A stretch of 9,856 bases of DNA from a virus (Duplodnaviria > Heunggongvirae > Uroviricota > Caudoviricetes), in IMG/VR virus record IMGVR_UViG_2695420526_000009; one strand, 5' to 3'. Below the pieces are notes generated by a model. It was not told the DNA's origin and ran no database searches. It was given only the letters and a program-made list of their open reading frames with translations. The translations under genes and the position numbers were made by a program. Positions 1 to 9,856 of this stretch are shown one piece after another (position 1 is the first letter of the stretch; every line of letters starts with the position of its first letter).

Positions 1-183
1 TACACTAAATCAGTAAGTTGGCAGCATCACCCCGCCACAGAACAATTATTGCTTTTGCCGTTGATGACAATAAAGTTTTTATCGCAGGCGTATACCACGG
101 TGGGCAAATCTATGAAACCGATTTTTTATCCAGTGCACCGTAAAACCCCCATCCTTCAGGGCGTGGCGGATATCAAACTTTGG

Positions 184-1266
184 TCATTTTCTCTGGCTGA
201 TCTTTACCGGATAACCATCCCGAAGATCAATTAAGTGCTCCGGTTCAGAAGCAAACCATGCATAAGATCCCCACGCCAATTCTGGTATTGCCTTTTTAAA
301 AGGCAGAGCACTTCTGTCCATAAATGCCGTAAGGAATGCAAGATTTTTCTCGCTGAACCCAGCGTCAATAGCCAAATGAGTGAGAGTAACTTTTCGTTCC
401 CTGTTTATAGGCCCATCTGTCGCAACTACTTCAGTGAAAACTACAAGCATGTCCGAACCCGTTCGGTCCTCTCCCAAATCAATCAAAATAATATCTGGAA
501 GTGCTTTTGAGGCATCAATATTCAGCCCCAATGCTTTTGCCAATACATCATCCTGAGCAACAACTTTATTCCCGGATTCAGACAACCAGAGCACAGTTGG
601 ATTCTTAAGAAAATTAGGAGCAAAAACTTCGATGACGGCCTTAGCTATTGTACTTGACGGGCCCGGAGCTAAAGTTCTCTTCTCTCCATTTGGGAAAGTG
701 ACGACTACGGCATCAGCAGCAATCACTGCCCCTGATTTCAATAAACGCAACCTAGCAAGAGCGGCTTTGTTCAAATGATTTTCTTGCCAGGAACTTATTG
801 CACTCAGCAGCGAATCTCCTTCAAGCCCGGCATCAAAGAGTGCTGCAAAAGAGCGATTCAAACTGTAACGAGGACGAGAGGATGTGGTGGGTATACCTTT
901 ACGCTCAACAATTGCATTGCAAGGTATTAGGCCATTTTTTATAGTTTCATCACGTATTGGCTCACGCGTATTTTCCGCATACCATGCATCAGCAGGCCTT
1001 ATCTTTTGTTTAGAGAAAGTCATCTTTACCCAGCTTTCTCTGGACGCATCATCAGTAAGAGCAGCCTGCGAATCTCCCATACTTACAACCTGGCTGGGCC
1101 TTATCCATCGCCCCAGCCCCTCAACCGCACCAGCATAAAACATGACAAAAATTGTTTTTGCAGCTATTTCCCGAATTAAATATCCACGATTCTCAGTCCC
1201 TTCAGGGAAAATTAATTGTAATCTTTCCCGGATAACATTCAATGGGGGAACAACAGGCAGATTCAT
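184..1266 (-). CDS. Putative Type II restriction endonuclease (BsuBI/PstI-like), 360 aa
   Basis: Uninterrupted 360-aa ORF. Its ATG (1266) overlaps the stop of the upstream methyltransferase in an ATGA junction (1263-1266), indicating translational coupling. Position immediately downstream of an N6-adenine MTase fits an M-R operon. BsuBI/PstI family assignment is from recalled similarity of the N-terminal region, not a search; no PD-(D/E)xK motif was positively identified by eye. Confidence 0.55.
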   Translation of the reverse strand: MNLPVVPPLNVIRERLQLIFPEGTENRGYLIREIAAKTIFVMFYAGAVEGLGRWIRPSQVVSMGDSQAALTDDASRESWVKMTFSKQKIRPADAWYAENTREPIRDETIKNGLIPCNAIVERKGIPTTSSRPRYSLNRSFAALFDAGLEGDSLLSAISSWQENHLNKAALARLRLLKSGAVIAADAVVVTFPNGEKRTLAPGPSSTIAKAVIEVFAPNFLKNPTVLWLSESGNKVVAQDDVLAKALGLNIDASKALPDIILIDLGEDRTGSDMLVVFTEVVATDGPINRERKVTLTHLAIDAGFSEKNLAFLTAFMDRSALPFKKAIPELAWGSYAWFASEPEHLIDLRDGYPVKISQRK

Positions 1267-3095
1267 GCAATCATCACTCCATAGAAACCAGCGATAGTTC
1301 TCTCAATAATCCGTCTGTGGACGCCAGCATCAATTAACGATTGAATCTCCATCACCTGCTCCAGAGAAGGCAACGGGATTGAATTCAATTCATAGGCCGA
1401 AACAGCAACACTTCCGCTTATACACCTGAACGCCCGATCGACAACATGCGAATTAAGTAGCATATCAATAACATCAGGGCGAACCGCAGAGAACAATCCG
1501 TTTGAATATACAATATTAATATGGTTTTCAACTACTACGCCACCAGTTTCATCTATAAATCCCTGAGGTAAAATTGCCGCTAAAATCCTTCTGTCCTGTT
1601 CCTTCGATGTTGTCCGCTGAACAAGCACACATTCAGATTTTGTCACAAGGAAACCCTGTTGTGGGGTTATATCGATATAGGGAACATGATTTTTTCTGTC
1701 TGCACTAAAACGAAAACCAGCTGAAGTTATTGATTCCGCCCAGACTAATGGGTAGCTATTTTTTCCTTTCGTCGTACGCAACTGCGACTTAAATCGATTC
1801 CAGACTAACTGACCTGTAGAGACTGAGTATCCCAGATCAGCTAAACGCGTAGACATCTGTTTTAATACATTAAGAAAACAGGCATCATCTTTAACGCGTG
1901 GCAAAAGCCACGTTGCTCCACCTTTTTCTATATCAACATTACCTATTTTCTCAATTTTTGCTTTGTTCAACCCCTTAGGGACAAGTGAGGATACCTGGGC
2001 CCGAACTTTATGTTCTCCCGCCTTGAATGCTGTCAACATTGTTTCCTGGAGAACATCGTCAAAGACCCCATCCCTGTCAGTGACGAAATCAAGGGCATAC
2101 GGAGTAGTTTTTTCGGTCAAAAGGGTTCGCAGCGCGGTGAAATACTGCCCACCAAGAAAAGAAGTTGGCGTAAGAAATGCAATAACTCCTGTTTTCTCTT
2201 TAACCATGCGAACAGCTAAGTCGGTGAACAATCCATATAGATTTGCATGACCAAATAACGAACGAGAATATTTTTCTCTCGTTTTAATATCGAGAGTGAC
2301 ACGTCCGTAAGGCGGATTCCCTACCACAAGATCATAACCAGAAAATTTATCTTGCTGAAGCGCATCAGCAACAATAATTGTATCTTCAGGCAATCTACGT
2401 TTTACCTTTACACATAGTGGCATTAGTACAGATTCGAGCAATACCAAACTCATCCAAGCCGCAAATGGATCGATCTCTATCCCCTTTAAACGACGACTGA
2501 TTCTCCTCAACATCCATTCAGGGGAAGACCCCTTGTCTTTTTTTAACATTCGAATGGCTACTGGTGCCAAAAATGCACCGCCACCACACGCAGGATCAAT
2601 AACCGATGCATGAGAAAAATCAACACCAGACTTTTCAGCCAGGTCCAAGAGACGCGCTACCAAAGGTGGGGGGGTATAGTAAGCCCCCAATTCCGAACGG
2701 TAAGCGGATGGCAGCATTACCGTATAAATTGACCCAATCAGATATCCAGCGTCCTCCGCCGGAAATTGAGCAATAAGCTCACCTGTTCGTTCAGCGAGCT
2801 CGCGTGCATCACATGGAATGTCTTCTATGTAAACAGTGTGCGGTACTGCCCTCATTTTAATGCTGCTTTTTTGCTTTTTTGCAAGGGTATCCCAATATGC
2901 AGCTACGATGCTGAAGCAGTATGAGCGGGCATGCATCAACCTTGACTGCCCGGTTTTGTAATTGCCCGCATAACCTTTGGCCATGGCTTTACAAGTTTGA
3001 TATCTTTCCAGATTAGAAAACTCATTATCTGTAAAAAAATCAAAATGTTGCACATTCATAATGTAAAATCCTAATGTATCAAACATGCGGGCCAT
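1263..3095 (-). CDS. N6-adenine DNA methyltransferase, gamma class (Eco57I/PstI-like amino-MTase), 610 aa
   Basis: Translation contains GAYYTP (aa ~137-142), SAM-binding motif I VIDPACGGGAFL (aa 165-176, nt 2577-2597 verified by back-translation) and catalytic motif IV VVGNPPYGR (aa 257-265, NPPY at nt 2307-2318 verified). Motif I preceding motif IV is the gamma-class order. Start is ambiguous: ATG 3095 has no clear SD; an in-frame ATG 12 codons downstream (MNVQ...) has AGGA 9 nt upstream. Confidence 0.85.
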   Translation of the reverse strand: MARMFDTLGFYIMNVQHFDFFTDNEFSNLERYQTCKAMAKGYAGNYKTGQSRLMHARSYCFSIVAAYWDTLAKKQKSSIKMRAVPHTVYIEDIPCDARELAERTGELIAQFPAEDAGYLIGSIYTVMLPSAYRSELGAYYTPPPLVARLLDLAEKSGVDFSHASVIDPACGGGAFLAPVAIRMLKKDKGSSPEWMLRRISRRLKGIEIDPFAAWMSLVLLESVLMPLCVKVKRRLPEDTIIVADALQQDKFSGYDLVVGNPPYGRVTLDIKTREKYSRSLFGHANLYGLFTDLAVRMVKEKTGVIAFLTPTSFLGGQYFTALRTLLTEKTTPYALDFVTDRDGVFDDVLQETMLTAFKAGEHKVRAQVSSLVPKGLNKAKIEKIGNVDIEKGGATWLLPRVKDDACFLNVLKQMSTRLADLGYSVSTGQLVWNRFKSQLRTTKGKNSYPLVWAESITSAGFRFSADRKNHVPYIDITPQQGFLVTKSECVLVQRTTSKEQDRRILAAILPQGFIDETGGVVVENHINIVYSNGLFSAVRPDVIDMLLNSHVVDRAFRCISGSVAVSAYELNSIPLPSLEQVMEIQSLIDAGVHRRIIERTIAGFYGVMIA

Positions 3096-3154
3096 AACAT
3101 CTCATGGTGGCGCATAGCAAACTGGCCCGAAGAATATCACGCACCAAGTCGATC

Positions 3155-3170
3155 TCATAACCCGTTATGA
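3155..3170. promoter_or_regulatory. Perfect inverted repeat TCATAAC-CC-GTTATGA upstream of the methyltransferase start
   Basis: 7-bp perfect arms with a 2-bp centre, about 60-75 bp upstream (minus-strand sense) of the M gene start within the 3096-3309 intergenic region. Candidate operator or promoter-associated site; no binding protein identified. Confidence 0.3.
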
Positions 3171-3309
3171 CAATAAATCTTTGTAGCTGAACTCACTTGG
3201 TGATTTGTCAATCATTCCTGGCCTCCAGTTCGTCCTGAATCTCTTTATCGAGTTCACCGTATTTGTTAGTCCTCATCACTCACGACTTGACTTCCAGAAA
3301 TAACCTTGA

Positions 3310-3666
3310 TTATTCGGGGCTATATTTTGTCACCCTGCGTATCCGCGCTTTCGCATTACGCTCAATCTGGATTAGCTTTTCTATATTTTTTCGCCTTTCC
3401 CGCTCCTCCTGGCGCAAGAGCCTTACATCATCTGCCAGTCTGGTTTCTCTTTTCGCCACAGAGAGCATCCAGTCAAATGGCTCCACAACTGCACCGCAAA
3501 TTTTACAGCGGACCTGACGCTCTTTTTCGTCAACCCGTACAGAGGCGTGATGGCAATATGGTCTTTCCGATGGCTCATAAAGAAAATTAACCTGATTACG
3601 AGGGTTATCCTCTTTTACCGGAAATAAAACAATATTGCTTAACTCATCTTCTGGTTTTATTTCCAT
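3310..3666 (-). CDS. Hypothetical Cys/His-containing protein, 118 aa
   Basis: ATG at 3666 preceded by strong SD AAGGAGAGGAGC. Contains C-H-H ... C-x2-C cluster (RPYCHHASV...RCKICGAV) and a basic, coiled-coil-like C-terminus (RLLRQEERERRKNIEKLIQIERNAKARIRR). The longer ORF from the track (to 3723) is rejected because the SD sits just before the internal ATG. Confidence 0.6.
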   Translation of the reverse strand: MEIKPEDELSNIVLFPVKEDNPRNQVNFLYEPSERPYCHHASVRVDEKERQVRCKICGAVVEPFDWMLSVAKRETRLADDVRLLRQEERERRKNIEKLIQIERNAKARIRRVTKYSPE

Positions 3667-3723
3667 GCTCCTCTCCTTTGATGCGAATGCCAGCGGTAAT
3701 TGAAGCCTGATAGCTAATTTCAC

Positions 3724-4113
3724 TCACAGTACCGCCTCCTGAAAATCACCCTGATAGAAAGCCGGTACACGCTGCATAACTTCACTCTTCCGGCACTCGC
3801 GACAGATTATGTTCTGATGTCTGTCGTAGCGGCGTATTTCTCCGTCCGGTAATGACCAGATAAGGTCCGGATCAACCACAGATGGTTTCTTCAGCTTTGC
3901 CCTCGAGAGTTTTTTGCGGGCGTTTTGCCAGTCCTTACGCGCCTGTTCAGACGGGAATAACCCGTAACCAGAGTTGTATACATCGCCACTGGCAACCAGC
4001 TCTCTGGCGAGAACACTCATCAGATATCTTGTCGCACCTGTCTTGGCTTCCAGTTGCCGCAACGTCTCGCGACCGCTCAGACGTACAAGTTCAACAACCT
4101 GCCCTTTAATTTT
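3724..4113 (-). pseudogene. 5'-truncated copy of a phage gene (paralog of 4249-4431), N-terminus replaced by an IS end
   Basis: Reading frame is open from the IS boundary (4113) to the stop at 3724; it encodes ...KIKGQVVELVRLSGRETLRQLEAKTGATRYLMSVLARELVASGDVYNSGY..., matching the N-terminal region of the gene at 4249-4431 but lacking its first ~11 codons, which are replaced by IS sequence. Confidence 0.6.
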
Positions 4114-4238
4114 TGAGGTAGCCTGAGTTTAACGGACACTCCTTCCTGAAATAGAATGGCATCAGAAGGAGCTAATAATGAGCAGAAAAACCCAACGTTA
4201 CTCTAAAGAGTTCAAAGCCGAAGCTGTCAGAACGGTTC
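4114..4238 (+). mobile_element. IS3-family insertion sequence left end (IS600-like), truncated by the scaffold gap
   Basis: Begins with TG (TGAGGTAGCCTGAGTTTAACGGACAC...), followed by an SD (AAGGAG) and ATG at 4178 opening orfA (MSRKTQRYSKEFKAEAVRTV...), which I recall as the IS600 OrfA N-terminus. The element stops at the N-run, typical of assembly collapse at a repeat. Confidence 0.75.
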
Positions 4239-4248
4239 NNNNNNNNNN
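4239..4248. other. Assembly/scaffold gap (10 N)
   Basis: Ten consecutive n characters in the sequence. Confidence 1.
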
Positions 4249-4431
4249 GTAGCCAGAGTTGTATACATCCCCACTGGCAACCAGCTCTCTGGCGAGAACG
4301 CTTATTAAATATCTTGTCGCCCCGGTTTTAGCTTCCAGTTGTCGTAACGTCTCGCGCCCACTCTGGCGTACGAGTTCAACAACCTGCCCCTTAATTTTTT
4401 CCCGCTCTTCCTGTGTAAATACTTTTGCCAT
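4249..4431 (-). CDS. Hypothetical phage protein, N-terminal 61 codons (partial; 3' end lost at gap)
   Basis: ATG at 4431 (MAKVFTQEEREKIKGQVVELVRQSGRETLRQLEAKTGATRYLISVLARELVASGDVYNSGY), GGGGG SD-like stretch upstream, 15 nt after the stop of the preceding gene. The track ORF 4198-4446 reads through the N-run and IS and is an artefact. Confidence 0.6.
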
Positions 4432-4446
4432 AAGCGCCCCCGGCAA

Positions 4447-5172
4447 TCACTTTTCCGACACAATACGACCGGAGGAATCGACAATCTGTCGAACAATATC
4501 CCGGTGCTTGTTCAGCTCCCGCAACGCGGCGCAGACACGCTCCCACTTCTGGACATGACTTTTCGCCCGACGCAGTTCGCGGTTTGCCATATGCAGCGAT
4601 GGTAAAACCAGGTCATCCGCTTGCGTTTCGGTGAACGATGGCAACGACTGCACAATGTCCGCCACAGTTTCTGTTTTAATTTCTTCCTGTGTTGCAGCTT
4701 CCTGTACCGGTAACGCAACACCTGCTGGCTGAGGAAAGACTTTACCATCCGTTTCCGCTATGGATGCGGCTTTCGGCTCTGCCGGTAAATCAGCGCCCGG
4801 TATGCAGTACCGAAATTTACCGCCCTGATTCACGCGAATCAGACGCCCTTTGCTGATTGCCATGGCCAGCGATGAATTCGCCCGGCGGGAGGTAATCCCG
4901 AACATCAGTGCCAGCTCATCCGCCGTTTGTGGGCCATGTTGTTCAATCGCCTCAGTCAGCATTTGCGCTGTCACTTTCGGTACCGGTGACACTGGTTCAC
5001 TTTCACCAGCCTGAATCAGCCACCACATCGAACCCTTGTTATCCGCTTCACCACGGCGCTTCAGTTTCCACAGTTCGTTGACCGCATCTTCACGGCTGAT
5101 TCCAAGGCGGGACGCCACCACATGTGAAGAGGCTCTTTTCAGTGCTTTCAGTGCGTCAAATACAGTTTCCAT
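4447..5172 (-). CDS. Hypothetical phage protein, 241 aa
   Basis: ATG at 5172 ([13 protein letters not shown]...) preceded by GGAGGATG SD; the track's longer start at 5190 is a TTG. Lies directly downstream of the DnaC-like gene in the same operon. No recognisable motif by eye. Confidence 0.7.
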
Positions 5173-5193
5173 TAAAACATCCTCCAACAAAAA

Positions 5194-5940
5194 TTACTTC
5201 ACAACTCCCGGAAAGCTGACATTTGAACGCCAGCTATCCCAGTTAAACGTCACCCACCGACAACCGTTCATGGTCATGCGGTCCATAATCCTCTCACCAA
5301 GAAGCGTGCTCATTGCGGCATGATTCAGGTTTGTTAACATCCCGACACTGCACAGTGATGCTGTCCGGCGATCAATTATCTGGTGCAATACCACCTGCTC
5401 GTTTTTCGTCTCCCGCTGAATGCCTATTTCATCCAGGACCAGCAAATCAACCCCGCAAAGCTCCTGTAAAAATTTTTCACCGGATTTGCCGTTGTCGTAG
5501 CTGTCATGCAACACGCTCATGACATCAGACTCGGTGACGATAATCACGCTGCGCCCCTTCGCCATCAGCCGGTTACCCATCGCCGCTGCAAGGTGATTTT
5601 TCCCGGTGCCGGTTTTACCGCTGAACACAAAATTCGTGCACCCGGTCATCAGTTCGTCAGCTATGGATTTGGCCTGGCTCAGCGCGTATTTTTGCCCGTC
5701 GTTCTGCACCTGATAATTCGCAAACGAGCATTTGCTGTGCAGAGGCTGGATGCCCGAACGATTCAGGATTTTTTCCACCCGCAACTGGCGATTCTGGCGG
5801 TTAATCTCCTCGCTGCGTTTTCGTCCTTCAGCAAGTTGCCATTCCCGCCACTCCTCCACCGTCCGGTACGGTGGAACCGCCCCCTGTGGTGCAAGTCTGT
5901 GAATACGTTCAAGAACCCCGGCTGCCGCAATGTTTTTCAT
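5194..5940 (-). CDS. DnaC-like replicative helicase loader (AAA+ ATPase; Rac YdaV-like), 248 aa
   Basis: Walker A FSGKTGTGKNHLAAAMG and Walker B DLLVLDEIG; near-collinear resemblance to E. coli DnaC as recalled (e.g. RSGI-PLH, FENY/FANY, GERVMDRM/GERIMDRM, FNWDSYRS/FNWDSWRS). Stop of the O-like gene is 6 nt upstream. Confidence 0.9.
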   Translation of the reverse strand: MKNIAAAGVLERIHRLAPQGAVPPYRTVEEWREWQLAEGRKRSEEINRQNRQLRVEKILNRSGIQPLHSKCSFANYQVQNDGQKYALSQAKSIADELMTGCTNFVFSGKTGTGKNHLAAAMGNRLMAKGRSVIIVTESDVMSVLHDSYDNGKSGEKFLQELCGVDLLVLDEIGIQRETKNEQVVLHQIIDRRTASLCSVGMLTNLNHAAMSTLLGERIMDRMTMNGCRWVTFNWDSWRSNVSFPGVVK

Positions 5941-5946
5941 GCCACA

Positions 5947-7011
5947 TCACCCCCTGAATCCCGGCGGAATTTCGGTATCCGGTTCAGAAATATGATTCAC
6001 ACAACGCTGGTTGTTCGTGCCGCTTACCGGGAGCAACCAGGGGTTTTCAAAATTCCGGTCCGGCCCAAAAAACGTCGTCGCTCGCTGAACAAATTCCGTT
6101 CCCGCTTTCCCGGTCGCCGCCAGGTATCTCGCGTAACGCCTCACACCATCCAGCATGGTCTCTGGTGGCACCCCCTCGCGCAATCTGGCCTTCCAGGCAC
6201 TGAATGCGGATTTCTTCGGGTTTGCCCCGGCACGCAACGGGTATTCCCGCCAGACCTGTTCGAACACATCCGGATAATCCACTCGTCCCACAGGCTGCCC
6301 GGTGTTTTCCGGGGCTACCCGATCGGCTTCCCGCTGAATGGCGGAATCGGCTTCAGGCTGCTGCAGTTGGAGTGATTGCTCCGGCCTTGCGGTCATCACC
6401 TGCTGCACAGCGCCCGAATCGGCTTTCAGCGCATACGCTGAATCGGCTTCCGGTGTCGAGCCTGCTGGCTGACCAGGATTGACGGTCTGAACATCCCCTG
6501 CCTGGTTCGTGGCGTTTTTTACGCCATGGACCATAGTGTTTTGATCTTCTTTATCTGTATCTTTATCTGTATCTGTCGTGACTCGTCGTGACATGTGCGT
6601 GACATTTCGTGACGCGCCGTGACAATCGCCATTTTGTTCCCGCTTTCTTTCCCTCTCTCGCTGCGCCCTCTTGCGCTCTGCAGGAGATTTTGCGGTTTGC
6701 GAAATATTGCCGTTGTCCTCTTTAAGCACCTGGCGTTTTTCCCATCCAGTGATTAAATCACCATCAAGTACCCGCCCCTGCATCGTCTGCAAAATTGAAT
6801 CAATTACCTCTTCTGTCACGTCGAGCGCACTTGCCAAATCTTCTGTCGTGACATCAATGTGACCTCGCGTGACATTTCGTGACGCGCTCACCAGGAGGTG
6901 GATATACACTGCCATCACTGTTGCAATTGGCTGCCCTGACACCCTGGCAATTGTTCGCCACTTAGGGTCATTTGGCATGTCATGCCATAATCTGAGCCAG
7001 GCGTTAGCCAT
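5947..7011 (-). CDS. Phage replication initiator, O-like (Rac YdaU-like), 354 aa
   Basis: Position between the YdaT-like gene and the DnaC-like loader. Iteron arrays lie inside the coding sequence, as with lambda O/ori. ATG at 7011 with GAGGTG SD-like sequence upstream; the track start at 7017 is GTG. The central region is low-complexity (TDTDKDTDKED) and encoded by the repeats. Confidence 0.75.
   Translation of the reverse strand: MANAWLRLWHDMPNDPKWRTIARVSGQPIATVMAVYIHLLVSASRNVTRGHIDVTTEDLASALDVTEEVIDSILQTMQGRVLDGDLITGWEKRQVLKEDNGNISQTAKSPAERKRAQRERERKREQNGDCHGASRNVTHMSRRVTTDTDKDTDKEDQNTMVHGVKNATNQAGDVQTVNPGQPAGSTPEADSAYALKADSGAVQQVMTARPEQSLQLQQPEADSAIQREADRVAPENTGQPVGRVDYPDVFEQVWREYPLRAGANPKKSAFSAWKARLREGVPPETMLDGVRRYARYLAATGKAGTEFVQRATTFFGPDRNFENPWLLPVSGTNNQRCVNHISEPDTEIPPGFRG
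6549..6623. repeat. Origin-like region: tandem 12-bp AT-rich repeat (CTTTATCTGTAT x2) followed by five CGTGAC iterons at ~10-bp spacing
   Basis: CTTTATCTGTAT at 6549-6560 and 6561-6572; CGTGAC at 6577, 6587, 6598, 6608 and 6618 (one helical turn apart), all within the O-like gene. Confidence 0.6.
6846..6887. repeat. Second iteron cluster (four (T/C)GTGAC copies), sharing an exact 21-bp block with the first
   Basis: CGTGAC/TGTGAC at 6847, 6858, 6868 and 6878; GCGTGACATTTCGTGACGCGC occurs at both 6597-6617 and 6867-6887. Confidence 0.5.
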
Positions 7012-7082
7012 ACTCACCTCTTCTGATACCGAATCTTTTTACTCACGAGTTGCCGGGAGCGATTCGATATGGCTATTGTCAG

Positions 7083-7508
7083 TCAATGTACTGCCACAGC
7101 ATTTCCTGCCGGGCCACCACGGTTCATCTGATTGAAACCGGCGATTGCCACTGCGACAAAATCATCAGCGTCTCTCACCAGTCGTTCATGCGTCTCCACC
7201 AGTTCCCGAAAATAAGCTGAACTGTGGCTGCGCATTCGAGCCACCAGCGGAGGTGGCATTGCCCTTTCGATCGCAGGTAACAACGCCTGAATTTTTTCAA
7301 CAGCGTCAGGGGTGTCTTTATCCAGCCAACGGAAAATCTTTTGGGTGTTGAGATAAAGCGTGTTGTGCTTGCTGTCGTTATGCAGAACCGGAAACGTCAT
7401 TCCCAGTTCGAAATAAACCCTGGTTATTTCAGCTGCCGGAACTTTTTCACCGTCCGGATGCGCCCAGGCTTTCATCGCCATGCGGATGTGTTCATGCTTG
7501 ATTTTCAT
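7083..7508 (-). CDS. YdaT-like protein (CII-position regulator of Rac-type prophages), 141 aa
   Basis: Immediately downstream of the Cro-like gene with ATGA overlap (7505-7508) and upstream of the O-like gene, the position and size of Rac YdaT. Assignment is by synteny and size, not a search. Confidence 0.65.
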   Translation of the reverse strand: MKIKHEHIRMAMKAWAHPDGEKVPAAEITRVYFELGMTFPVLHNDSKHNTLYLNTQKIFRWLDKDTPDAVEKIQALLPAIERAMPPPLVARMRSHSSAYFRELVETHERLVRDADDFVAVAIAGFNQMNRGGPAGNAVAVH

Positions 7509-7768
7509 GAATCAACCCCCGCCGATGGTTGTGTGTTAGCCTGAAACTCAGCAGGCAAGCCGTCAGTTGGGTTGGGGTAGGTTTTACTGTCAATCTCATG
7601 TGGGGTCACCACCCATCCCGTTGCTTCACACCAACGTAATATTTTTTCTCCTGTAAGTTTTGCACGCCCCGTTATAACGTGGCTGACCATCCCTTGGGAT
7701 GCGCCAACAATCTCAGCAAATGAACTCTGGGTTATATGAAAATGATGCAAATATTCTCCAAGATTCAT
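7505..7768 (-). CDS. Cro-like HTH protein (XRE family; YdaS-like), 87 aa
   Basis: HTH-like segment QSSFAEIVGASQGMVSHVITGRAKLTGEKILRW; divergently placed against the repressor gene. ATG 7768 chosen (MNLGEY...); the track's longer start at 7795 is a TTG. Confidence 0.7.
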   Translation of the reverse strand: MNLGEYLHHFHITQSSFAEIVGASQGMVSHVITGRAKLTGEKILRWCEATGWVVTPHEIDSKTYPNPTDGLPAEFQANTQPSAGVDS

Positions 7769-7803
7769 AATCCGCCCTATGTGATGTGTTACCAATGCAT
7801 AAT

Positions 7804-7845
7804 TAATAGCACTGTTATTTTTAAAAGTAAATAGTGATACTATTT
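7804..7845. promoter_or_regulatory. Divergent switch region with two operator-like palindromes
   Basis: Perfect palindrome AAATAGT-GAT-ACTATTT at 7829-7845 and imperfect TAATAGC-ACT-GTTATTT at 7804-7820, in the 111-bp AT-rich spacer between the divergent repressor and Cro-like starts. Confidence 0.5.
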
Positions 7846-7879
7846 CAAAGTGATTAGCAATCTTATTAGAATTGGATGT

Positions 7880-8380
7880 ATGAAAAGAAAATCATTGTCA
7901 GACACCGACCTCAACGCCGCCAGAAGACTGAAAGAAATCTGGATGGCAAAGAAATCTCAGTTGGGATTGACTCAGGAACGTGCGGCGGAAATTATGGGGT
8001 TTTCAACACAAGGGGCGGTAAGTCACTACCTAAATGGTCAAACCCCACTAAACCTTGAGGCTGTTCTAAAGTTTGCTGGCTTACTGAAAGTTCCCCCTGA
8101 GTCAATCAGGCCAGACATGGTAGATTTGCTGCAAATTGCAAGGATGTATTGTCGAGAACCACAGCAAGATAACATAGTCGCATTACCAGCAGACACAGAA
8201 CAAACAGAGGATGAACTACCGTTTGCCGTAGAGCCGATGGAACGAGATTTAATCCATACGTTCAGAGCTTTTCCGAAAGAAGATCAAGAACACATGCTTC
8301 AGGAGATGAAAGATAAAAAAGAATCAATGGATCGTACGGTTGCGCGGTGGTTAGCTGCACAAAAAGGCCGTCGCGCCTAA
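7880..8380 (+). CDS. Prophage repressor, XRE-family HTH (RacR-like), 166 aa
   Basis: HTH LGLTQERAAEIMGFSTQGAVSHYLNGQTPL near the N-terminus; no S24 peptidase (LexA-like) domain visible, consistent with RacR-type rather than cI-type repressors. ATG 7880 (MKRKSLSD...) preferred over the track's GTG at 7850. Confidence 0.8.
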   Translation: MKRKSLSDTDLNAARRLKEIWMAKKSQLGLTQERAAEIMGFSTQGAVSHYLNGQTPLNLEAVLKFAGLLKVPPESIRPDMVDLLQIARMYCREPQQDNIVALPADTEQTEDELPFAVEPMERDLIHTFRAFPKEDQEHMLQEMKDKKESMDRTVARWLAAQKGRRA

Positions 8381-8399
8381 ATCAGAGGAGATATGTAAA

Positions 8400-8594
8400 A
8401 TGAGTACAGTCCTTTCCCCAATGGTTTCAGAATTTGAGACAGTTGAGCAAGAAAATAGTTACAACGAATGGCTGCGGGCCAAAGTAGCAGCAAGCCTCGC
8501 GGATCCCCGCCCGGCGATTCCGCATGATGAGGTAATGGCGGAAATGGAACAAATTATTGCCCAAATTGCTGCTGCAACTCACAGAGGTGAATAA
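8400..8594 (+). CDS. Putative type II antitoxin (partner of the ParE/RelE-family toxin), 64 aa
   Basis: Small acidic ORF with SD GAGGAG 9 nt upstream; its TAA stop overlaps the toxin ATG (TAATG at 8592-8596). Antitoxin family (ParD/Phd-like) not determinable by eye. Confidence 0.6.
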   Translation: MSTVLSPMVSEFETVEQENSYNEWLRAKVAASLADPRPAIPHDEVMAEMEQIIAQIAAATHRGE

Positions 8595-8884
8595 TGTTAC
8601 CCGTTTTATGGCTACCATCTGCTCGTGATGATTTGCGCCAGATCGTAGCCTACATAGCTAAAGAAAATCCCGCGGCAGCACGCAGAATGAAAATTCGAAT
8701 TGAAACATCCGTTTTGCCGCTCACAGAGCATCCTTACCTGTATCCTCCAAGCGAGCGAGTTCTTGGTCTTCGTGAAATTGTAACTCATCCTAACTACATC
8801 ATCCTTTACCGAGTAACAGCATCAAGCATAGAAGTAGTAAATATTGTGCATTCTCGAAGACAGTATCCAGGCAAAAACAGTTAA
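8594..8884 (+). CDS. ParE/RelE-superfamily toxin, 96 aa
   Basis: Size, basic C-terminus and family-typical pattern (N-terminal W...ARDDLRQIVAYIA; C-terminal LREIV...YIILYRV...IEVVNIVHSRR) plus the overlapping upstream small gene. Confidence 0.75.
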   Translation: MLPVLWLPSARDDLRQIVAYIAKENPAAARRMKIRIETSVLPLTEHPYLYPPSERVLGLREIVTHPNYIILYRVTASSIEVVNIVHSRRQYPGKNS

Positions 8885-8898
8885 TTATTCCCGCCGAC

Positions 8899-8925
8899 AG
8901 AACCACCTTAGGGTGGTTTTTTCTT
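8899..8925 (+). terminator. Rho-independent terminator after the toxin gene
   Basis: Stem AACCACC (8901-8907) / GGTGGTT (8912-8918) with loop TTAG, followed by a T-run (TTTTTTCTT). Confidence 0.6.
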
Positions 8926-8939
8926 GCCCCAACAAAAAA

Positions 8940-8986
8940 CAATAGCGATGCTATTTACATCAAAAAAAAATAATGATGCTATTGTT
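8940..8986. promoter_or_regulatory. Second operator-like cluster (OL-like) with candidate rightward promoter
   Basis: Palindrome AATAGC-GAT-GCTATT at 8941-8955 and half-site copy AATAAT-GAT-GCTATT at 8969-8983, same consensus as the 7804-7845 sites. A TTTACA -35-like hexamer lies at 8954-8959; no convincing -10 was found. Confidence 0.45.
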
Positions 8987-9164
8987 TCAGGCGTCAACCC
9001 ACCCCGCCCCACAGAATGCAGGGCAATACTTCGAGTTACCAGACAGTGGTCAGGGGTTAAGTAGCCAGCCCGAGGCGTAAGAACATGACGGCAGGGTTCA
9101 ATCTTTAACTATGCAGCAGGTTTTTTGTTCCGCCACCCCGGCGTTAAGGGGAAATGAGGTCAGC

Positions 9165-9317
9165 ATGGATACTATCGATCTTGGCAACAACGAATCTCTG
9201 GTGTGCGGCGTGTTCCCTAACCAGGATGGAACGTTTACCGCCATGACGTATACCAAAAGCAAAACGTTTAAAACCGAATCTGGCGCGCGTTGCTGGTTAG
9301 CCAGAAACACTGACTGA
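9165..9317 (+). CDS. Small phage protein, 50 aa (YdaF-like by position)
   Basis: ATG 9165 with GAGG SD 5 nt upstream (MDTIDLGNNESLVCGVFPNQDGTFTAMTYTKSKTFKTESGARCWLARNTD). The track's longer start at 9111 lacks an SD. Confidence 0.55.
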   Translation: MDTIDLGNNESLVCGVFPNQDGTFTAMTYTKSKTFKTESGARCWLARNTD

Positions 9318-9328
9318 TGAGGCTGACG

Positions 9329-9694
9329 ATGGAATTTAAAGATTTACCGTCTGATGTACAGAAAACAGCAGCTCATACATTGCATTCTGTGCTGCGAGAA
9401 ATCGGGAAAGATATTGCAAGCGAGCCAGCAAAAGATCTGGCCCGGAAAATCAAGACCGCTTTCGTTGAGCTTTATAATGTTGGCACTGACTCTGAAACTG
9501 TCGAGACCAAGACCGTAAGTTCACCAATATTCTCACTTGAGCCAAGCGTATTATCAGGTGAAATATGCACCGAGATTTCCAGCGAACTGCTTCCGGTAAT
9601 ACGAGAAGCAATTCGCCGTCGCGGTTTGGATGGAAGTTATGATCATGACGTTCTGCAAGTTCTCAGGACAATGGTGACTTCACTGGGGATTTGA
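9329..9694 (+). CDS. Hypothetical acidic phage protein, 121 aa
   Basis: ATG 9329 with GAGG SD 6 nt upstream (MEFKDLPSDVQ...); the alternative ATG at 9317 overlaps the previous stop (TGATG). No recognisable motif. Confidence 0.6.
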   Translation: MEFKDLPSDVQKTAAHTLHSVLREIGKDIASEPAKDLARKIKTAFVELYNVGTDSETVETKTVSSPIFSLEPSVLSGEICTEISSELLPVIREAIRRRGLDGSYDHDVLQVLRTMVTSLGI

Positions 9695-9856
9695 TCCCTG
9701 CGTCCTCTAAGCTTTTGATATAGCGGTCCTCCAAGAAGCGGTAAATTTTGTCGAAATCATCTTTTCCCTCTGGTTTATTCAGAGGATTACAGGACCCGTA
9801 AGTAGCGGCATACATTTCAACCGTTTGGTAATGACTCCAACTTATTGATAGTGTTT

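Follow-up and report, generated by a model that had tools for sequence, protein, structure and literature searches.

Does a gene that appears twice, as two diverged halves on either side of a scaffold gap, record an event in a bacterial chromosome or a fault in its assembly, and are the genes beyond the two halves truly neighbors? The question is raised by a stretch of 9,856 nt (the window: the whole of the DNA that was analysed), in which a block of restriction-modification (R-M) genes and a block of replication genes are separated by the sole N run, 10 N at 4239-4248. The scaffold consists of two contigs, 1-4238 and 4249-9856.

Some 30 nt at each end of the window (1-31 and 9827-9856) are what we take to be IS1 terminal inverted repeats, and in closed genomes IS1 genes are found at the corresponding places (a transposase gene at 13120-13817 of locus L003 for the left end, IS1 at 2843-3540 of L006 for the right end). 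The window is thus an entire scaffold, from IS1 to IS1, in a draft genome of Shigella sonnei: besides these termini and their closed-genome counterparts, its methylase and DUF1627 match exactly proteins that bear the name Shigella sonnei or multispecies Shigella and occur on at least 1000 contigs. The closed-genome flanks are ydfI/ydfZ/ydfH/ydfG/dcp-like genes on one side and ynfF-H/dmsC-like genes on the other, which on the K-12 map corresponds to a Qin-like cryptic-prophage position.

Within these ends, the R-M block, the 118-aa gene, both DUF977 copies and the replication block are read from the minus strand. The type II R-M block (184-3095) comprises a BsuBI/PstI-family endonuclease at 184-1266 and an N6-adenine methylase at 1263-3095, with Pfam matches PF06616/PF17728 and PF07669/PF02384. 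A 118-aa hypothetical prophage gene (3310-3666, between DUF977 and the methylase), the protein of which is identical to that of the closed-genome gene, always occurs beside this block. The replication block (4447-7017), assigned from Pfam matches and the homologous Escherichia coli locus L001, comprises DUF1627 at 4447-5172, a DnaC/IstB-like ATPase at 5194-5940 and a replisome organiser at 5947-7017. Beyond it lie a YdaT-family gene (7083-7508) and, at 8400-8884, a pair of PaaA2-type antitoxin and ParE-type toxin genes in the prophage remnant. All components of the locus are ordinary: a DUF977/YdaW-type gene, an IS600 end, a BsuBI/PstI-type R-M pair and a lambdoid replication module.

A repeat search over the whole window finds one direct repeat, in which 3964-4114 matches 4249-4399 (151 nt, ungapped, 88% identity, spacing 285), and no second repeat family of 40 nt or more; a separate alignment of the two arms gives 18 mismatches over 150/151 nt. 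The original prediction, of two ~150-nt homologous stretches with ~18 differences and ~88% identity, is borne out by both, and its coordinates were right within 1-2 nt. It also had both arms encode the same protein region, and codons 12-61 of a DUF977 gene do occur twice in the window. Codon position 3 holds 16 of the 18 differences, and only Q23L and I43M remain at the protein level; the prediction had seen the second of these (M/I) and missed the first (L/Q). Given the excess at third positions, the arms are two natural alleles under purifying selection and not sequencing or read errors. That the copies are different alleles of the same gene, and not one sequence read twice, is upheld by the synonymous bias of the differences and by the 100% match of each arm to a different natural allele.

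The left DUF977 copy (3724-4113, minus strand) holds codons 12-140 and the stop, its 5' end being cut by IS600; the right copy (4249-4431, minus strand, with its ATG at 4431-4429) holds codons 1-61. Both score above the gathering cut-off of 22.1 bits for Pfam family PF06163, which places them in the YdaW/LygF-type DUF977 family: the left fragment with 84.4 bits (E=9.8e-24, profile positions 13-134) and the right with 41.1 bits (E=2.3e-10, profile positions 1-60). YdaW is a prophage-borne putative transcription factor that varies among strains (PMC9308461). DUF977 lies downstream of lambdoid replication genes both in the closed S. sonnei loci and in the E. coli prophages L001, L002, L023 and L024.

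The sequence that cuts the left copy, at 4114-4238 on the plus strand, is the left end of IS600: its terminal repeat and the first 20 codons of orfA (ATG at 4178), cut in turn by the gap. It is identical at 125/125 nucleotides to Shigella plasmid copies that carry the annotation ‘IS600 ORF1’ or ‘IS3-like element IS600 family transposase’, and to the IS600 elements of the closed S. sonnei loci L017 and L020. The full element is ~1.26 kb long. Its right end is found nowhere in the window, the 10-N run cutting the element off after 125 nt, and the gap-side end of the right contig holds no IS sequence. As in known insertion polymorphisms of IS600 (IS3 family) in Shigella, an annotated left end interrupts a prophage gene, here at codon 11/12; the case differs in that only the left end is seen, with the right junction and any target duplication hidden by the gap, and in that the insertion site is matched in no other sequence searched.

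Finished genomes show how the locus is arranged in the species. When the exact methylase and the 118-aa gene are looked up, the same locus is found at no fewer than 25 places on megabase-scale S. sonnei contigs (for example CP104423, CP032523, CP049185, CP022672 and CP010829). All share one order: YdaT, replisome organiser, DnaC-like ATPase, DUF1627, an intact 140-aa DUF977, the 118-aa gene, methylase and endonuclease. Without 3964-4248 (285 nt in all: 151 nt from the foreign allele, 125 nt from IS600 and the 10 N), the window is left with 9571 nt that are collinear with closed CP049185 apart from 3 mismatches and a single homopolymer indel, A8/A9. This indel, the only one in 9.6 kb, is intergenic, with A9 at ~8953-8961 of the window and A8 in CP049185. 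Compared with closed genomes, the right contig (4249-9856) has 99.96-99.98% identity; the left contig shows no difference over 1-3537 and departs from them at 3538, 3544, 3940 and the 18 repeat-arm positions. Foreign sequence on the left contig is limited to the last 151 nt of the gene and the 125 nt of IS600, and no departure from S. sonnei is seen elsewhere in the window.

Judged by these matches, both contig bodies are parts of the same IS1-bounded prophage remnant, in which the closed genomes show a single intact DUF977 between the blocks. The idea, put forward to explain the repeat, that the scaffold joins contigs from different paralogous prophages does not hold. It had further been said that whether the R-M and replication blocks are adjacent was unknown. 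For the species this no longer holds, the two being adjacent in the same order and orientation in the megabase contigs. Since every megabase-scale S. sonnei contig examined has the blocks side by side, the same is very likely true of the window's strain.

The alleles differ in origin. The right copy (183 nt) agrees at 100% with the one DUF977 that each closed S. sonnei locus has, and the right allele is the one native to the locus. The left copy is split: 3724-3963 is collinear with closed genomes, and 3964-4113 is a foreign (‘left’) allele. The segment 3930-4114 is a 100% match to DUF977 genes in the prophages of many complete E. coli genomes; among the fetched loci, E. coli L023 carries the left-type allele and L024 differs from it by one base, and the allele is absent from every S. 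sonnei locus fetched. Over the longer segment 3600-4113, the best E. coli match among closed genomes is 95.9%. A gene of this hybrid make-up, native in its 3' part and left-type in its 5' part, was found nowhere else searched. In a collection of 15 billion proteins there is no intact hybrid or truncated DUF977 protein of this kind: exact look-ups were negative for the 112-aa and 98-aa truncated forms, for three possible intact hybrids and for four 3'-cut DUF977 forms expected on k=31 contigs.

These comparisons bear directly on the plainest account of the locus, a simple insertion of IS600 into the resident DUF977 gene with the right-hand copy misplaced. IS600 is abundant and mobile in Shigella, and the left fragment ends exactly at an IS600 terminus. 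Such an insertion, however, cannot produce a duplication of 151 nt that is 12% diverged; the sequence that adjoins the IS differs from the resident allele, and the right contig runs 150 nt beyond the insertion point as a perfect match to the resident gene. The scenario, which had been named in advance as one that would refute the original reading, is contradicted by the comparison of alleles, and we regard it as very improbable.

The reading that we prefer is that both half-copies are real sequences joined by short-read mis-assembly, with the scaffold order itself correct; we hold this to be probable. With about the same confidence, the 276-nt tail of the left contig (foreign allele plus IS600) is likely to come from another, IS600-disrupted prophage copy and to have been mis-joined here. 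The window would then be a short-read scaffold of an IS1-bounded lambdoid prophage remnant in the Qin-like position, and the real chromosome would have one intact DUF977 at the locus, with the R-M and replication blocks adjacent as scaffolded. Somewhere else, the genome or the read set would hold a second, E. coli-prophage-type DUF977 allele, cut at codon 11/12 by IS600. The native gene (with C at 3940) would share an identical stretch with this second allele, at least 3923-3966, through which the assembler would leave the native 3' half, enter the 5' half of the foreign allele and dead-end in multicopy IS600. The true continuation, now the right contig, would be left starting at the fork, and the scaffolder would re-link both contigs with a nominal 10-N gap.

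Two results are what mis-assembly of this kind predicts: removal of the suspect segment restores collinearity with finished genomes, and the break falls where the alleles diverge, after a shared identical stretch. The right contig starts at 4249, which is 3 nt before the first allele difference (3967/4252). A start so near the first mismatch suggests a fork in the assembly graph and not a random point of the 183-nt fragment; nothing would lead one to expect a real biological breakpoint at this point. Over 3923-3966, the native gene of the C3940 haplotype is identical to the left-type alleles of L023 and L024, a stretch long enough to merge both paths at small k. The left contig's remaining differences (3538T, 3544G, 3940C) are also found in further S. 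sonnei drafts, and in one of these, L039, the DUF977 gene is uninterrupted and passes from C3940 into the native allele; they are not signs of chimerism.

Mis-assembly at near-identical paralogous prophage modules is a known pattern, and the window resembles it in several ways. The alleles share a short identical stretch, removal of the spur restores collinearity, one contig dead-ends in a multicopy IS as the other starts at the fork, and related scaffolds have comparable defects. It differs in that the paralogous locus that would supply the spur has not been located in the collections searched. Three further points count against an assembly error. No break separates the unique R-M block from the foreign allele on the left contig, and a true recombinant would look alike. 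A plain k-mer contig, moreover, normally keeps k-1 shared bases at a fork and the right contig keeps 3, so that a trimming or gap-processing step must be assumed. At the outer scaffold ends, finally, there are 30-31 nt of IS1, and at the gap edge there are 125 nt of IS600; for this asymmetry, too, an additional step must be assumed, perhaps one of gap filling that lengthened the contig at the gap.

A left-type DUF977 interrupted by IS600 was sought widely as the second locus. BLAST searches with the left arm and IS600 detect no DUF977/IS600 junction in 5,426 complete E. coli genomes or in phages and plasmids; an exact 44-mer spanning the junction has no match in IMG/VR, GTDB representative genomes or JGI metagenomes; and none of the 57 fetched loci contains it. 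The second locus was accordingly found in none of the E. coli genomes, phages, plasmids, IMG/VR, GTDB representatives, JGI metagenomes or fetched loci. This absence is weak evidence against an assembly error, because a truncated gene would be an unannotated pseudogene and because the DNA-level search covered S. sonnei through the fetched loci and not through whole chromosomes.

Several candidates for a second copy were considered and set aside. A second copy of the 118-aa gene was rejected as a paralogue, both of its start variants occurring only beside the R-M block. Its N21D variant (P0270) likewise sits at the locus or in E. coli prophages and never on a contig >1 Mb. A divergent partial S. 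sonnei protein (P0169) turned out to belong to this same locus, as its L001-type allele. The prophage downstream of P0066 (L047-L057) was dropped as a source of the left allele, its DUF977 being 93.9% identical to the left arm. Partial DUF977 proteins at the contig ends of other drafts were not used as evidence of a common fork, several of them coming from N-riddled scaffolds (L033).

The arrangement could also be real. Part or all of a second lambdoid prophage, with a left-type DUF977 that IS600 had already disrupted, might have recombined inside the resident DUF977 of the isolate, by homologous crossover or by Campbell-type integration via the shared stretch. The true layout would then run from the R-M block through the foreign allele into IS600, with the native 5' half and the replication block lying beyond whatever fills the gap. 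A left contig in which unique sequence, foreign allele and IS600 follow one another unbroken is what such an event would leave behind; a homologous crossover would put the switch at the first mismatch, as observed; and the junction, being unseen elsewhere, could be specific to the strain. On the other hand, the intact arrangement is present in all closed genomes examined, the right contig lacks an IS end, and the scaffolder placed the contigs as they lie in closed genomes, in order and in orientation, across a minimal gap, although a full IS600 plus extra DNA is normally unbridgeable by short-insert pairs. We consider a real rearrangement unlikely.

A mixed or contaminated sample is a further alternative, in which the left-type allele and its IS600 junction would come from a co-sequenced Escherichia or Shigella and would have been grafted on via shared k-mers. 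It would account for the perfect match of 3930-4114 to DUF977 genes of many E. coli genomes and for the lack of the left allele in any fetched S. sonnei locus, and a draft labelled S. sonnei (L047, described below) does mix native sequence with a prophage whose marker protein is mostly named E. coli. Yet the IS600 junction is in no E. coli genome searched either, the low-coverage branch of a contaminant is usually clipped by the assembler, and the rest of the window is S. sonnei throughout. Contamination therefore seems improbable to us.

Other drafts of the locus are informative here, since related S. sonnei assemblies show the same class of defect in the DUF977 gene. In L035, the right end is as in the window, and a run of 17 N at ~3942 separates contig ends that overlap by 3 nt. 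In L040, a single N lies between ends with ~190 nt of diverged overlap. L036 (Logan SRR26411652_489) corresponds to 2837-3939 of the window and ends one base before the SNP site 3940; its left break, at 2837, is inside the methylase gene. In L047/L050 (CXCS01000143.1, 4750-6033; labelled S. sonnei), the native DUF1627 and the first ~240 nt of the native DUF977 run into the 3' part of the DUF977 of another prophage, which is seen intact in L048-L057. The prophage joined in L047 has DnaB-type replication, a 253-aa DUF1627, an M78 peptidase and Hok, and its 76-aa marker protein is rare (about 11-19 contigs, mostly named E. coli).

The drafts also vary at single positions. Five SNP sites in the 118-aa gene and DUF977 (3538, 3544, 3606, 3631 and 3940) occur in at least six combinations among S. 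sonnei drafts (L012, L033, L035, L039, L040 and L042-L046 were compared); the closed genomes examined share one haplotype. The combinations reflect either mixing of paralogues by assemblers or repeated gene conversion or recombination. In L039 (CXFV01000038.1), a second module of DUF1627 (253 aa) and DUF977 (138 aa) at 68-1261 is scaffolded beside the IS1 that bounds the locus, which implies that S. sonnei genomes carry further DUF977 paralogues; the same scaffold has an 11-N run at 1347-1357.

Among lambdoid prophages at large, DUF977 is a mosaic joint. Its alleles switch in mid-gene between prophage lineages, at ~4002 for the L001 type, at 3940/3967 for the left type and at ~3907 for the L047-L057 type, and the switches separate a variable N-terminal part (with a weak HTH_24 match in some alleles) from a conserved C-terminal part. 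The window fits the known mosaicism of Rac/Qin-type lambdoid prophages, with their ydaT-ydaU-ydaV-ydaW-like arrangement, both in its gene series (HTH, YdaT, replisome organiser, DnaC-like ATPase, DUF1627 in some, DUF977) and in having allele switches within DUF977, between the variable N-terminal and conserved C-terminal parts. It differs in that its apparent joint is beside a scaffold gap and was probably made by the assembler and not by the cell.

Together, the mosaic joint and the variety of SNP combinations make recombination at DUF977 plausible, and both can be entered in favor of a real rearrangement, the SNP haplotypes of the 118-aa-gene/DUF977 segment suggesting recombination or conversion. 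Assembly mixing, however, explains the haplotype diversity and the related chimeras equally well. A stronger form of the argument is that real recombination with a second, IS600-disrupted lambdoid prophage separated the blocks, and that the SNPs and switches seen in drafts reflect frequent exchange at a DUF977 hotspot; to us this is rather doubtful. Were it true, DUF977 would be a hotspot of phage-prophage exchange in an otherwise clonal pathogen. A real rearrangement in this isolate by itself would be one more ordinary IS- or prophage-mediated variant of Shigella.

Under the preferred reading of mis-assembly, the main value of the result is in the quality control of draft-genome annotation, and the finding is best placed among matters of assembly quality, not among biological features. 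The original caution that the join across the gap is unsafe at face value is well founded. Without reads, neither the doubled half-genes nor the truncated ‘pseudogene’ nor what looks like an IS600 insertion should be annotated or counted as gene content, pseudogenisation or rearrangement of the isolate. The 118-aa-gene/DUF977 segment is unreliable in short-read assemblies of this S. sonnei remnant, and SNPs in it should be masked in phylogenetics.

The R-M pair of the window also occurs outside Shigella. In E. coli FDAARGOS_943 (L001/L022), a fuller lambdoid prophage carries it with 99% identity over 32-4002, placed between a ParDE pair and the genes of a related replication module, and the R-M block is a prophage cargo common to E. 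coli and Shigella.
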